DNA of 63,344 nt, counting the filler. It is 14 parts of 14 records of this genome, joined end to end, with 100 filler letters (N's around TTAATTAATTAA, not from the genome) between each part and the next. Parts side by side here need not be neighbours in the genome. Positions count along the whole stretch, not along the records: positions 33,478 to 55,087 come from SRR9188676_2991; 13 more parts are not named here. One strand, written 5' to 3'. A program made the translations under genes and the position numbers. Positions 32,553 through 55,061 of the stretch are shown one piece after another. The notes below the pieces were generated by a model, which did no database searches, was not told the origin of the DNA, and saw only the letters and a list, made by a program, of their open reading frames with translations. Each line of letters opens with the position of its first letter. The stretch's first letter is position 1.

Positions 32553-33723
32553 GCAGCAACATCCACCAACTTCATCGACTCAAAGCATTATAATCAGAGC
32601 TGGAAGAGACAACAATAGCACATCAGGCTGCACCAATCATATCTGTCATTGACACTCATTTTTTATACCACTGAATCTGGTCAGCGACAGACACACACAT
32701 AGGCACACATTCATTACATCGTCGTCATAACAGACAAATACAACTGATTCACTGCTCTCTAAGTCAATTATCATTTCTGAAACTCTACTTATCACGATTT
32801 ATTTTGCTCTCCCTACCCTCTTCCCCACCCCATCTCTCCCTTTTCCAATGAAGCTCGAAGCGAGCAGCCCTTGAATCTGAAGCCTTTCTTGAAGAGCCAG
32901 GAACTCTTTCTTCAACTTGGACCAAAGTGACTCTTCGCCTTGTTTTAAGCTCGAAGAAAAAAGGGCGTGTAGGGCCACGAGTCGAGCTGTTTTCCACGGT
33001 ACGCCACATCTTGTCATATTATGTCCTGCAGAAGCCTGCTGGAATGATTGATCCAGGAGGGAGGATACAAAATGGTACGGAGAGGAGTTTTTTGTTGGGT
33101 AATGTAGGGTGCCCCTCGGTACTACCACTACCAGATTTGGCAATCCCTCTCAACTTTCCTCTCTCGTTGATTCATTCAGGAATATCTTTGCGCTGAAGAT
33201 CTGTTCGAGAACATCTTCTGAAAAGTCTTTCCCCATAATCTGTTTTTTCCCCCTTTCTTTCTTCCAGGATTGAATACAAGTCGAGGGAGAGAAGGGTGGG
33301 AAATGAGTTTGATGAAGATGGAGAGTGATATTCCTGGTATTCTGTATATATCTGTGTGTATTTTTTGTCCTGTACTANNNNNNNNNNNNNNNNNNNNNNN
33401 NNNNNNNNNNNNNNNNNNNNNTTAATTAATTAANNNNNNNNNNNNNNNNNNNNNNNNNNNNNNNNNNNNNNNNNNNNTTGAAAAACTATTTTGTAGGGTA
33501 GAAAAAATATTTTTCACCCTTGAAAAAATTCTCTTATCACCCTCTCATTTTTTGTCTAAGTTTCCTAAGTCATTTAATTTCTGTAAAGCTAAATTATTAA
33601 AACTAATGAATAGTGTCTGTTGGCAATTGGTTTATTAGTTTACATTATATACTTTTAAGAAAAAACGCAAGTATGAGTATATTTATCAGTTATATGTCAT
33701 TACAAACAAGCATTTTACACTAA

Positions 33724-46492: not shown

Positions 46493-47941
46493 CTATCCAA
46501 CTGAACCCTCTAATGATACTGCCAGCAATTTTTGTGCTTCAACAGCAAATTCCATTGGTAATTGGTTCAATACTTCTTTAGCATAACCGTTTACAATTAA
46601 AGCAACGGCTGCTTCAGTAGAAATACCACGTTGGTTACAATAGAACAATTGGTCTTCTCCGATTTTAGAAGTCGTTGCCTCGTGTTCTACAGTAGCCGTT
46701 TTATTTTTTACTTCAATATATGGGAAAGTATGCGCTCCACAACGGTCGCCCATTAAAAGAGAATCACATTGAGAGAAGTTACGAGCATTATCTGCACGTT
46801 TCATTACTTCTACTAATCCACGATATGAATTATGAGATTTACCAGCAGAAATACCTTTAGAAACAATTCTTGATTTAGTATTCTTACCAATGTGAATCAT
46901 TTTTGTACCAGTATCAGCTTGTTGCATATTATTTGTAACCGCAACTGAATAAAATTCACCAATAGAATTATCTCCTTTTAAAATAACAGAAGGATATTTC
47001 CACGTAATCGCCGAACCTGTTTCTACCTGCGTCCAAGAAATTTTAGAGTTTGCTCCTTCGCAAATACCACGTTTTGTTACGAAGTTATAAATTCCACCTT
47101 TTCCTTCTTTATCGCCAGGATACCAATTTTGTACAGTTGAGTATTTTACTTCAGCATTTTCATGAGCAACAATTTCAACTACCGCTGCGTGTAATTGATT
47201 TTCATCACGCTGAGGAGCTGTACAACCTTCTAAATAACTAACATAAGAACCTTCATCTGCAACAATCAAAGTACGTTCGAATTGTCCAGTTCCTGCGGCA
47301 TTAATACGGAAGTAGGTTGAAAGTTCCATCGGGCAACGAACACCTTTTGGAATATAGCAGAAAGAACCATCAGTAAATACTGCGGCATTGAGAGCTGAAA
47401 AGAAGTTATCTTTTACTGGCACAACTGAACCTAAATATTTTTTGATTAATTCCGGATGATCTTGAATTGCTTCCGACATCGAGCAGAAGATGATTCCTCT
47501 TTTCGCTAAATCTGCCTTAAAAGTAGTTGCTACCGAAACAGAGTCGATAACGGCATCAACAGCAACATTTGATAAACGTTTTTGTTCGTTTAATGAAATA
47601 CCTAATTTCTCAAAAGTAGCACGTAATTCTGGGTCAATATCATCTAATGATTCCAAAACTTTTGCTTGTTTTGGAGCAGAATAATATTTAACAGACTGAT
47701 AATCAACTGGTTTGTAATGAACGTTTGACCATTTCGGTTCTTCCATTGTCAACCAAGTACGGTAAGCACTTAGTCTTAAATCAAGCATCCATGCTGGTTC
47801 GTTTTTCTTTGTTGAAATCAATCTGATTACGTCTTCACTCAAACCTGCTGGCACTTCGTCAGTTTCGAAGTGACTTTGAAAACCATATTTGTACTCCGAG
47901 GAGGTAACTTCCTCTAATATATCAATTTCTTCTTTTGCCAT
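46493..47941 (-). CDS. sufB: Fe-S cluster assembly protein SufB
   Basis: [52 protein letters not shown]. Confidence 0.97.
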
Positions 47942-48045: not shown

Positions 48046-48519
48046 TTAACCTTTATAGCCAAAAGGTACTGAACGATTTATACTTTCTTCTAAAGAAATA
48101 AATGTTTCAGTTCTTTGAATGCCCTGTACTTTTTGAATTTTATCGTGAAGCACTTCTCTTAAATGAACAGTATCACGACAAACAATTTTCGCAAAAATTG
48201 AATAAATACCTGTTGTATAATTAATACTTACTACTTCTGGAATTTTGATAAGTTGTTCGGCAACTTCAGCATAGAGCGAGCTTTTATCTAAATAAATTCC
48301 CAAAAAGGCAGCAATGTCCCAACCCAATTTAGTATGGTCTATCACCAATTGTGAACCTTTAACAATTCCAGCTTGCTCCATTTTGCCCATTCTTACATGA
48401 ACGGTTCCGCCCGAAACATTGATTTTTTTACCAATTTCAGTGTAAGGCATGGTGGCATCCTGCATCAAAAGTCCTAAAATTTTCAAATCAGTTTCGTCGA
48501 TTTCGACATTCTTTTCCAT
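48046..48519 (-). CDS. asnC: Lrp/AsnC family regulator, AsnC-like
   Basis: HTH VSGGTVHVRMGKMEQAGIV and RAM domain YTTGIYSIFAKIVCRD..KIQKVQGIQRTET, closely paralleling E. coli AsnC; ATG at 48519. Confidence 0.88.
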   Translation of the reverse strand: MEKNVEIDETDLKILGLLMQDATMPYTEIGKKINVSGGTVHVRMGKMEQAGIVKGSQLVIDHTKLGWDIAAFLGIYLDKSSLYAEVAEQLIKIPEVVSINYTTGIYSIFAKIVCRDTVHLREVLHDKIQKVQGIQRTETFISLEESINRSVPFGYKG

Positions 48520-48657
48520 AATATAAGTATTTAGACTCAAATAAAATTTAAAATTTTACAAAAAACAACACTTTTGAAAAGAAATTATTAACAAATTTTA
48601 AATAAATCTACTCCACAATTGAATATAATGTAAATTTTAAGTTTTTTTTATGTAAAA

Positions 48658-48689
48658 TTTGCAAAATAATAAAAGGTGCGCTAACTTTG
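48658..48689 (+). promoter_or_regulatory. Consensus Bacteroidota promoter driving the tRNA-like RNA
   Basis: -33 TTTG (48658-61), 20-bp spacer, -7 TAACTTTG (48682-89). Confidence 0.8.
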
Positions 48690-48724: not shown

Positions 48725-48887
48725 TGTAGGGTGATGAAATTTGGCAGACGTACCCTCCTGTCTCGGGGGTGGTGAACATGAAATAAAGTAAGTGTAATGC
48801 CCATCGCAAGATGGACTGGGGTTGACCACCAGACTTTGTACTTTACCTAATCACACCGTGGAGGTTCGAATCCTTCTCCTACAGCCA
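48725..48887 (+). ncRNA. tRNA-Asp(GTC)-like RNA with a 90-nt branched variable arm
   Basis: Acceptor TGTAGGG/TCCTACA + G + CCA; class-II-like D arm ATG-AAATTTGGCAGA-CGT; anticodon arm CCCTC-CTGTCTC-GGGGG; T arm GGAGG-TTCGAAT-CCTTC; insertion at 48770-48859. Confidence 0.85.
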
Positions 48888-49023
48888 ATTATTTGATATA
48901 TTTTGAGGATAAATTGTTGTCAAAGCACAATTTTATTATTACCTTTATTCTCAAATTATCAGATTGACTACAAGATATCAAGTAGTTTTATTTGGTTTTT
49001 AGTTTGTTGATGAAGTGTAATTC

Positions 49024-49055
49024 AAAAAAGCAGTCTTTGTAAGTCTGCTTTTTTT
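49024..49055 (+). terminator. Intrinsic terminator downstream of the tRNA-like RNA
   Basis: AAAAAAGCAG-loop-CTGCTTTTTTT. Confidence 0.75.
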
Positions 49056-49074
49056 GTTTTCAGCCCTTATCAAT

Positions 49075-54981: not shown

Positions 54982-55055
54982 GGGGGCTTAGCTCAGTTGG
55001 CTAGAGCGCTACGCTGGCAGCGTAGAGGTCATGGGTTCGAATCCCATAGTCTCCA
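54982..55055 (+). tRNA. tRNA-Ala (GGC)
   Basis: Cloverleaf with G3-U70, anticodon arm CTACG-CTGGCAG-CGTAG, TTCGAAT loop, A73; CCA not encoded; TACTTTTG -7 box at 54963-70. Confidence 0.95.
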
Positions 55056-55061
55056 CTAAAA

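Follow-up and report, generated by a model that had tools for sequence, protein, structure and literature searches.

The window analysed here is the whole stretch of 63,344 nucleotides (nt), in which positions 33,478 to 55,087 come from record SRR9188676_2991. On the plus strand of this part, at positions 48725-48887, the window contains a 163-nt element that combines a full transfer RNA (tRNA) cloverleaf with 90 extra nt in the variable region. On sequence comparison the element belongs to a new family of class II tRNA-derived RNA, which is conserved across the Cytophagales and several families outside this order, including the Saprospiraceae. The acceptor stem (TGTAGGG/TCCTACA, 7 base pairs (bp)) is formed by a 5′ strand at 48725-48731 (U1 G2 U3 A4 G5 G6 G7), which is followed by U8 and G9, and its partner at 48877-48883; the 3′ part of the element (48877-48887) continues with G73 (48884) and an encoded CCA (48885-48887). 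The D arm (48734-48751) is of a class II, Leu-like type with a 3-bp stem and the loop AAATTTGGCAGA, which carries GG, and it resembles the genuine tRNA-Leu genes of the nearest genome, a member of the same genus (G001), with a nearly matching D loop. The anticodon-like arm (48753-48769) consists of the stem CCCTC/GGGGG and the 7-nt loop CTGTCTC with GTC at 48760-48762, U37 at 48763 and C38 at 48764, and the T arm (48860-48876) reads GGAGG-TTCGAAT-CCTTC. Between these two arms a giant variable arm of 90 nt (48770-48859) occupies the site at which 4-5 nt are expected. The elbow nucleotides U8, G18-G19 and T54-T55-C56 are present in the element and invariant in the alignment of the family, and its 3-bp D stem and base-paired variable arm are those of a class II molecule. 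The tRNA-Ala of the window at 54982-55056 encodes C74 only and no CCA. A first-pass annotation of this DNA had described four intact tRNA arms with an encoded CCA next to an ordinary tRNA-Ala without one, 90 nt in place of the variable loop, a Leu/Ser-like D arm and the anticodon GTC with U37, all of which can be read in the sequence, the cloverleaf being additionally backed by covariation.

ARAGORN called the element in the window neither as a tRNA nor as a transfer-messenger RNA (tmRNA), and Rfam 15 yielded no relevant match to it at gathering scores or at E values up to 10; against tmRNA, only an 11-nt T-loop match of 5.8 bits was obtained. The element is also absent from the 39 matches to RF00005 in G001, for which 150 of 513 candidates were scored. 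No Rfam 15 family and no published description of such an RNA were found, the literature having been searched mostly without subscription journals, which agrees with the earlier statement that this is not a named family. A match to a C/D-box small nucleolar RNA at 48728-48756 (12.8 bits) is at chance level. The motif UGAUGAA is present both at the junction of the acceptor stem and D arm (48731-48740) and at 49008-49016 in an invariant block downstream of the element, which is probably a coincidence. Folded on its own, the sequence reaches a minimum energy no better than that of shuffles (z = 0.09), and the case therefore rests on conservation and covariation and not on folding energy.

BLAST searches with the 163 nt identified a full-length copy with 90-100% identity in 25/25 genomes of the genus. 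At the level of the order 132 of 201 genomes matched, and phylum-wide 30 of 301 did so, all but two of which are in the same class. Cytophagales among the matches listed in a pattern scan of named genomes (at least 120 stretches) include Hymenobacter, Dyadobacter, Spirosoma, Pontibacter, Cyclobacterium, Algoriphagus, Echinicola, Persicobacter, Arcicella, Flectobacillus, Aquirufa, Leadbetterella, Fulvivirga and others, and Saprospiraceae are also among them. A covariance model (R1) built on 150 diverse copies separates true copies (E values of 1e-15 to 1e-38) from class II tRNAs (1e-6 to 1e-13). At our own cut of E ≤ 1e-14, which defines RNA-positive genomes in the order sample, 108 of 151 genomes of the order are positive, the weakest three (G037, G139 and G062) being borderline, and the model recovered copies missed by BLAST in G399 and G475. 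Copies are 109-212 nt long, and many genomes contain tandem arrays with 3-6 units per fetched locus at periods of ~177-260 nt; up to 19 R1 matches were scored in one genome (G061). Within the genus, copies of the element have an average identity of 0.926, vs 0.51-0.68 for the upstream flank, and, together with its occurrence across the order and beyond, this bears out the proposal that the element is maintained.

Several copies stand out individually. Arrays are located at L058-L062, L068, L069 and L144, with five units in Persicobacter diffluens, and two arm types are mixed within one array at L059, L061 and L069. In another class of the phylum, a divergent copy (L230:185-330, genome G488) has a D loop enlarged by ~25 nt and the loop CGGTCAC, the only one seen with a purine at position 37, and retains the internal loop of the variable arm; a more ordinary copy is present in G348 of the same class (L229).

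Covariation was examined in two alignments. In the first (A2, 150 sequences), which covered the acceptor, D, anticodon and T stems, helices P1 and P1b of the variable arm and the first pair of helix P2, 97.9% of cells are in standard pairs, compared with 51.7-61.1% after sliding the 3′ partners by 1-3 columns. Both-sided changes occur in 17 of 28 pairs (470 cells), and none of 500 shuffles reached any of the five measures observed. Acceptor pairs 4-7 covary, the D-stem pair 11-24 is UA in 128, CG in 15 and UG in 7 of the 150 sequences, and in the T arm 99.7% of cells are paired and three of five pairs have changed on both sides. The anticodon stem is the sole helix without covariation, four of its five pairs being invariant and the fifth U-G or U-A. 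The second alignment (A1) comprises 33 copies sharing the distal architecture of the window, and with a structure initially drawn by hand it gave 92.4% paired cells vs 49-57% when slid, with both-sided changes in 17 of 41 pairs. The score of helix 5 (P2) was 65.4% owing to a register that was drawn wrongly at first; RNAalifold corrected this register and added the 3-bp helix P1b, whose pairs in A1 are of the types CG 11, UA 8, AU 4; GC 16, AU 11, GU 5; and GC 20, AU 13. Both the cloverleaf and the long variable arm are confirmed as real.

The variable arm, which is 40-150 nt long across the family, begins with the covarying 4-bp helix P1 (48771-48774/48854-48857), followed by a bulge of ~4 nt on the 5′ side and the likewise covarying P1b (48779-48781/48851-48853). 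A conserved internal loop follows, with AAUAAA at 48782-48787 (RAUAAA across copies) facing CUAA at 48847-48850, the latter kept in 103 of 106 copies. P2 (48788-48796/48837-48846) pairs G48788 with C48846 and 48790-48796 with 48837-48843. In the window and many families, the distal arm is a three-way junction with a freely covarying, variable hairpin (P3, 48799-48816) and a conserved hairpin (P4, 48816-48832) with the nearly invariant GGGTTGACCAC at 48819-48829, the motif of which, GG[AG]T.GACCAC, occurs in 72 of 106 copies; in other families the distal arm is a plain hairpin. Among the helices proposed for the insert in the first-pass annotation, GGTG/CACC and TGA/TCA are confirmed by covariation, as is the hairpin CCATC-GCAA-GATGG, in which five of six pairs have changed on both sides (A1 helix 6). 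The second hairpin (CTGG-GG-TTGA-CC-A-CCAG), the one around GGGTTGACCAC, is nearly invariant across copies, and the helix TAAAGTA/TACTTTA was placed in the wrong register: it is possible in this one sequence and finds no support in the comparative data. A K-turn reading of the internal loop was rejected, as its second strand lacks a GA; an 11-nt tetraloop receptor or a UAA/GAN motif may be considered instead.

The P1-P1b bulge contains an additional hairpin at L064:486-622, L099, L100, L147 and L177 (A2 columns 58-90), which indicates that the bulge tolerates large insertions. The distal arm of one of two tandem copies at L030:1151-1316, on the minus strand, contains a run of about six ATCA repeats that resembles a microsatellite. 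At several loci of the window's own and neighbouring families, the T stem has one or two bulged U residues in its 5′ strand (GGG-U-GG or GGG-UU-GG opposite CCCCC; A1 columns 161-162; L031-L038, L042-L044, L047, L048, L052-L054 and L056), which is unusual for a tRNA.

The element appears to be transcribed. Contigs from the RNA libraries of three studies, which start at 48729/48735/48744 and end at 48991/49019/49032, cover it and run colinearly across the insert without a visible joint, although contigs can miss rare spliced forms. The 289-nt contigs of X4 and X5 are identical, and these two may be a single data set; the remaining studies are X9 and X11. The contigs extend ~140 nt past the CCA and leave the promoter leader and the neighbouring genes uncovered; such contigs show neither ends nor abundance, and RNA libraries can contain DNA. 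Transcription, as claimed initially, is thereby supported and obligatory splicing is disfavoured, and the uncovered leader is a weak hint of 5′ processing at 48725.

Decoding was assessed on 106 unique copies from BLAST- and model-derived loci, unselected by loop pattern. Their loops read CTGTCTC (79), TTGTCTC (13), CCGTCTC (4), CTATCTC (3), CTTTCTC (2) and CTCTCTC (2), with CTGTCCC, TCGTCTC and CGGTCAC occurring once each. Position 37 is U in 104 copies, C in one and A in one (pyrimidine in 105/106), G34 is present in 99, and U35, C36 and C38 are each present in all 106. U33 is replaced in 6 of the 106 copies and in 30 of the 245 readable loops of a larger set of 246 copies, which was partly gathered by pattern with positions 32 and 35-38 fixed and is unusable for the invariance of these positions. 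Nearly all decoding tRNAs have U33 and a purine at position 37, and G001 carries a normal tRNA-Asp(GTC). The pyrimidine 37 and the unfixed U33 make the element very unlikely to be an ordinary decoder, as had been suspected at the outset. The complete cloverleaf and the GTC anticodon of most copies would fit an ordinary decoding tRNA-Asp with an oversized arm, or an intron-bearing tRNA giving a ~75-nt product. The first version conflicts with the nucleotides found at positions 33 and 37, and the A34, C34 and U34 variants would change the codon read; the second conflicts with an insert that is itself conserved and covarying and with colinear RNA contigs without a joint, even if these can miss rare forms. 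Self-splicing introns of bacterial tRNAs are located in the anticodon loop and are far longer than the insert of the element. We consider either version extremely improbable.

The 3′ end of the RNA follows the same rule as that of tRNA genes. C74 is encoded after G73 in 243 of the 246 copies of the larger set, positions 75-76 vary, and the full CCA is present in 43; in G001, all 39 genuine tRNA genes found encode C74 and only four encode CC or CCA. This shared C74 rule suggests tRNA-like 3′ maturation and CCA completion, and processing by RNase P and CCA maturation would proceed as for tRNAs. According to PMC9976931, aspartate identity depends strongly on G73, G34, U35, C36 and C38, with G2-C71 as a minor determinant, and U1-A72 specifies the amidation of Asp-tRNA-Asn, which G1-C72 and the D-loop nucleotide U20a prevent in tRNA-Asp; G1-C72, strictly conserved in bacterial tRNA-Asp, further helps to place the 3′ end in Escherichia coli AspRS. 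A nucleotide check of the element found the strong AspRS set and G2-C71 kept, with the exception of G34, which is replaced in 7/106 copies; G2-C71 and G73 are each present in 106/106 copies. In place of the G1-C72 of tRNA-Asp, all 106 copies have U1-A72. The D loop has the long class II form, and its numbering relative to U20a of tRNA-Asp is ambiguous. Judged by these nucleotides, the RNA is a hybrid with the anticodon and discriminator of tRNA-Asp, the first pair of tRNA-Asn and the D arm of tRNA-Leu.

We tentatively hypothesize that the element is matured like a tRNA yet kept from decoding, and that it serves as a dedicated substrate of a tRNA-based route from aspartate to asparagine. AspRS would load aspartate, reading G73, G34-U35-C36, C38 and G2-C71, and the amidotransferase GatCAB would then convert the aspartate to asparagine, reading U1-A72. 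The pyrimidine at position 37, the unfixed position 33 and the arm of 40-150 nt would keep an asparagine-loaded molecule with a GUC anticodon off Asp codons, and the conserved base of the arm (P1, bulge, P1b and the RAUAAA/CUAA loop) might act as a handle for a partner or as a block to ribosome entry. We infer aminoacylation, which the first-pass annotation had proposed, from the identity elements together with the tRNA-like rules at the 3′ end, and amidation, exclusion from translation and the fate of the product are likewise inferred. A dedicated carrier that is charged by AspRS and amidated by GatCAB is, in our view, the best-supported explanation, plausible if somewhat short of being probable.

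The distribution of GatB (PF02934) bears on this proposal. In the phylum-wide sample, every one of the 30 genomes in which BLAST detected the RNA has GatB. Within the class, the two coincide genome by genome: thirteen genomes of f23 have both the RNA and GatB and its remaining three have neither; in f28 three genomes have both and two have neither, both are present in 3/3 genomes of f30 and in the single genome of f34, and the two GatB-positive genomes of f25 are RNA-positive by the covariance model. Neither is found in 21 of 22 genomes of f24. In other classes GatB occurs without the RNA (f41, 62/63; f44, 14/14; f48, 49/49; f49, 15/16), and two genomes of f48 matched the RNA. Among the 151 genomes of the order, 107 have the RNA and GatB, one has the RNA only (G111, an assembly of 300 contigs), 30 have GatB only and 13 have neither. 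AsnRS is encoded in 149 and GlnRS in 60 of these genomes. Where GlnRS is present, GatCAB has no obligatory charging role, and in these 60 genomes GatB was found in 45 of 46 that have the RNA and in 4 of 14 that lack it. The four exceptions are G090, G082, G126 and G128, the only GatB match in the latter two being of a long open reading frame (ORF) or lower-scoring kind, and the ten genomes with neither comprise seven of f21 plus G038, G064 and G080. Conversely, 26 of the 30 genomes with GatB and no RNA lack GlnRS and thus need GatCAB for Gln-tRNA-Gln. Outside the order, the RNA, GatB and GlnRS occur together in G226, G264, G288, G304, G366, G389, G399 and G475, and G237 and G260 have GlnRS with neither of the other two. 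Overall, GatB persists in genomes that lack GlnRS or have the RNA, and is otherwise mostly lost. A three-state idea, in which the RNA would occur only where GlnRS and GatB coexist, was discarded in view of 62 RNA-positive genomes without GlnRS.

In one of the RNA-negative genomes with GlnRS and GatB (G126), the GatB match lies in an ORF of 1108 amino acids (aa) on the minus strand (G126:C5, L237:234-3560), in which GatB (GatB_N and Yqey domains) is fused to a complete, bacterial-type AspRS with an OB fold, class II core and GAD domain. Similar ORFs of 1110-1126 aa with GatB matches are encoded in G160, G175, G101 and G108, and one of 720 aa in G128. The fusion or long ORF is the only GatB match in G126, G128 and G160, and these three genomes and G175 lack the RNA. 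By its domain content the fusion amounts to a covalent transamidosome, and it shows that GatB works with AspRS in this clade; no description of a natural GatB-AspRS fusion was found in the literature, which was searched by title.

PMC4206432 reports AsnRS, GlnRS and GatCAB together in 68 of 547 genera, 18 of which, Bacteroidetes among them, have no asparagine synthetase, and suggests that GatCAB may be a vestige in some genera or may be retained for asparagine synthesis on tRNA-Asn. G001 encodes AsnRS, GlnRS and GatB and has no AsnA and no match to AsnB, a profile that corresponds to the orphan GatCAB situation without asparagine synthetase described there for some Bacteroidetes. AsnA was absent from all five genomes tested.

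A number of observations weigh against the proposed carrier. AsnB homologues (PF00733) are encoded in 138 of the 151 genomes of the order and are missing from only four RNA-positive ones (G001, G032, G114 and G120). PMC4206432 explains orphan GatCAB by a non-discriminating AspRS acting on tRNA-Asn, and such an ordinary tRNA-Asn route is possible; the tRNA-Asn of G001 has U1-A72. The RNA contigs reach ~140 nt beyond the CCA, which leaves a mature 3′ end at this site hypothetical. U1-A72 in place of G1-C72 may lower aspartylation, the large class II D loop may hinder the amidotransferase, an extra D-loop base being an antideterminant in tRNA-Asp according to PMC9976931, and G34 is not fully conserved. 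The genomes compared are related, and their co-occurrence counts are not independent events; moreover, 30 genomes of the order hold GatB without the RNA. The AsnB homologues in 138/151 genomes rule out that the RNA is in general the sole source of asparagine.

If the element is a carrier, it could represent a new functional class of RNA, a non-decoding aminoacyl carrier whose gene is in effect one for asparagine synthesis or asparagine donation and whose arm is a docking site, a wider claim that we regard as possible yet rather unlikely. A related explanation has the charged RNA donate aspartate or asparagine to an envelope, lipid or peptide acceptor, with the arm recruiting a transferase, by analogy with the non-proteinogenic tRNA-Gly of staphylococci, which serves peptidoglycan. 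Charging marks and non-decoding marks occurring on one molecule would be expected of such a donor, arrays of up to six copies per locus and 19 matches per genome suggest stoichiometric use, and with AsnB in most carriers, free asparagine is not an obvious need. However, no transferase gene is conserved nearby, the downstream genes vary, and we know of no candidate acceptor for non-ribosomal transfer from the element. Donation of this kind appears improbable.

Upstream of the element, a candidate promoter of the Bacteroidota type was identified at 48658-48689 on the plus strand, consisting of TTTG (48658-48661), a 20-nt spacer and TAACTTTG (48682-48689); it was read against the Bacteroidota consensus, TTG-N19-21-TAnnTTTG. 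The TAACTTTG box is partly conserved in the genus, and a sigma-70 scan of the plus strand found no promoter at 48658-48689. The element is followed by a conserved trailer (48888-49056, plus strand) with a mean identity of 0.82 in the genus alignment, into which the RNA contigs run from the tRNA-like part. It contains a possible second promoter (TTG at 48917-48919 and TACCTTTA at 48940-48947), a covarying hairpin near 48968-48986, an invariant 34-nt block (48991-49024) and a covarying terminator hairpin (49030-49049) followed by a U run to 49056, and the fold of 48950-49058 has a z-score of -2.99. The first-pass annotation gave the element its own consensus promoter and terminator; the terminator is located ~140 nt downstream, beyond the conserved trailer sequence. 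The trailer, the tandem arrays and the link to GatCAB are absent from that annotation. A 20-nt core of the block recurs downstream of copies in several further genera of the window's family (L033; L044; L127 in Flectobacillus; L140, L145, L154 and L160 in Arcicella; L165). The trailer, which is confined to one family whereas the tRNA-like unit is order-wide, looks like a small RNA (sRNA) co-transcribed with, or adjacent to, the element.

The trailer is one of several features that would suit an uncharged tRNA mimic, that is, a decoy, scaffold or regulator that binds AspRS, GatCAB or another protein, or an sRNA scaffold, in which case the conserved trailer may be the active part in Spirosomaceae. 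The invariant anticodon stem without covariation suggests a sequence-specific contact, the arm carries a conserved A-rich internal loop and the near-invariant GGGTTGACCAC hairpin, the trailer with its invariant 34-nt block and covarying terminator is spanned by RNA contigs, and co-occurrence with GatB fits a binding partner as well as a substrate. On the other hand, the full charging set (G73, anticodon, C38 and C74) exceeds the needs of a shape mimic. A search of the window for targets complementary to the P4 hairpin or the trailer block matched only the elements themselves, and the trailer is limited to one family, whereas the tRNA-like unit is order-wide and often arranged in tight arrays. 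We judge an uncharged mimic to be unlikely, if less so than a non-ribosomal donor.

On the minus strand, divergent from the element, a regulator of the AsnC/Lrp family is encoded at 48046-48540 (Pfam matches), followed by sufB at 46493-47941. Its best NCBIfam model is the AsnC equivalog, which it matches over the full length at 161 bits, short of the cut-off of 227; the Lrp model scores 38 bits. A divergent asnC-like gene followed by sufB and sufC is located upstream of the RNA at 37 of 48 loci, most of the others having short flanks, and the same divergent arrangement was found at 70 of 109 named loci with at least 700 nt upstream, with a median gap of 160 nt; it is absent from Saprospiraceae, many Cyclobacteriaceae, Pontibacter and Persicobacter loci. 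The E. coli genes asnC and asnA are adjacent and divergently oriented, and by analogy the divergence of the asnC-like gene and the RNA is suggestive. G064, which lacks both the RNA and GatB, keeps the regulator-sufB pair without a remnant of the RNA (L239 1504-1980 and 2071-3459, the downstream ORF being taken as sufB by position only), and here the divergent neighbour of the regulator is an ORF of 257 aa at a distance of 113 nt. As the pair persists without the RNA, synteny is weak evidence, and the idea that the AsnC-like neighbour is a dedicated regulator of the RNA is weakened by this locus, by the missing arrangement at 39 of 109 loci and by the AsnC model score below its cut-off. The regulator was not found in G090 or G082, both RNA-negative with an ordinary GatB, where a deletion or an assembly gap is possible. 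Genes downstream of the RNA vary (an AMP-binding enzyme at 30 loci, LepA at eight and an S15 peptidase in the window), and apart from asnC-sufBC no flanking gene was conserved in the loci examined.

The flanks also bear on a possible role in defence, in which the RNA would be a decoy or target for anticodon nucleases or other tRNA-aimed toxins that read the U-G-U-C loop and would act as a multi-copy sponge. An Asp-type loop that does not decode and the multiple copies in some genomes would be in keeping with this. Most genomes nevertheless have a single, syntenic and vertically conserved copy, the flanks examined contained no linked defence or mobile genes, and the tie to GatB would be left unexplained, which makes a nuclease decoy very improbable.

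The proposed carrier addresses the question of why bacteria with both AsnRS and GlnRS keep GatCAB; if correct, it would explain this retention in many such bacteria of the group. The element offers a testable alternative substrate that combines Asp charging marks with the amidotransferase mark and whose presence predicts GatB retention. Whatever its function, it is an abundant, deeply conserved and structured RNA in hundreds of genomes that has been missed by standard annotation of tRNAs and RNA families, and it demonstrates that the variable region of a tRNA can carry a structured domain of 40-150 nt.

Several known systems share individual features with the element. Like YrlA/Y RNA (PMC4201824) and tmRNA, it has a tRNA-like module within a larger non-coding RNA. 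The two ends of YrlA form a Ro-binding stem, whereas those of the element form a 7-bp acceptor stem, and Rfam gave no match. Unlike tmRNA, which lacks an anticodon arm and carries a tag reading frame and pseudoknots, it has all four arms. The 3′ external transcribed spacer of E. coli leuZ is comparable in its conserved trailer block and terminator, which the element also shows in RNA contigs, but the trailer described here may have its own promoter, is limited to one family and had no target in the window. Staphylococcal tRNA-Gly and the allo-tRNAs (PMC5389517) are similar to it as non-standard tRNA genes with an odd architecture or a non-ribosomal use; allo-tRNAs have an 8/4 or 9/3 split of acceptor and T stems and do decode, and a branched arm this large or the same combination of marks is not known from any of them. 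The class II tRNAs (Leu, Ser and Tyr), and tRNA-Leu in particular, resemble the element in their 3-bp D stem, helical variable arm, T loop and G18-G19. Their variable arms measure ~13-20 nt, compared with 40-150 nt in the RNA family, and the arm of the element is several-fold longer than any in G001; it further differs from them in its conserved bulge, internal loop and, in many cases, three-way junction, and in its G73 and Asp-type loop with U37. Bacterial tRNA-Asp shares the anticodon loop except for position 37 (CUGUC-U-C in the element, CUGUC-A-C in G001), as well as G73, G2-C71 and, at the genus level, the encoded CCA, but it has G1-C72 instead of U1-A72 and lacks the class II D arm, the giant arm and U37. 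Finally, tRNA-Asn of the transamidosome formed by non-discriminating AspRS and GatCAB is alike in U1-A72, G73, G34-U35 and co-occurrence with GatB. The element differs in its class II body and in C36, an Asp mark with which a discriminating AspRS should accept it too, and whereas Asn-tRNA-Asn is delivered to the ribosome, the element looks unable to decode.

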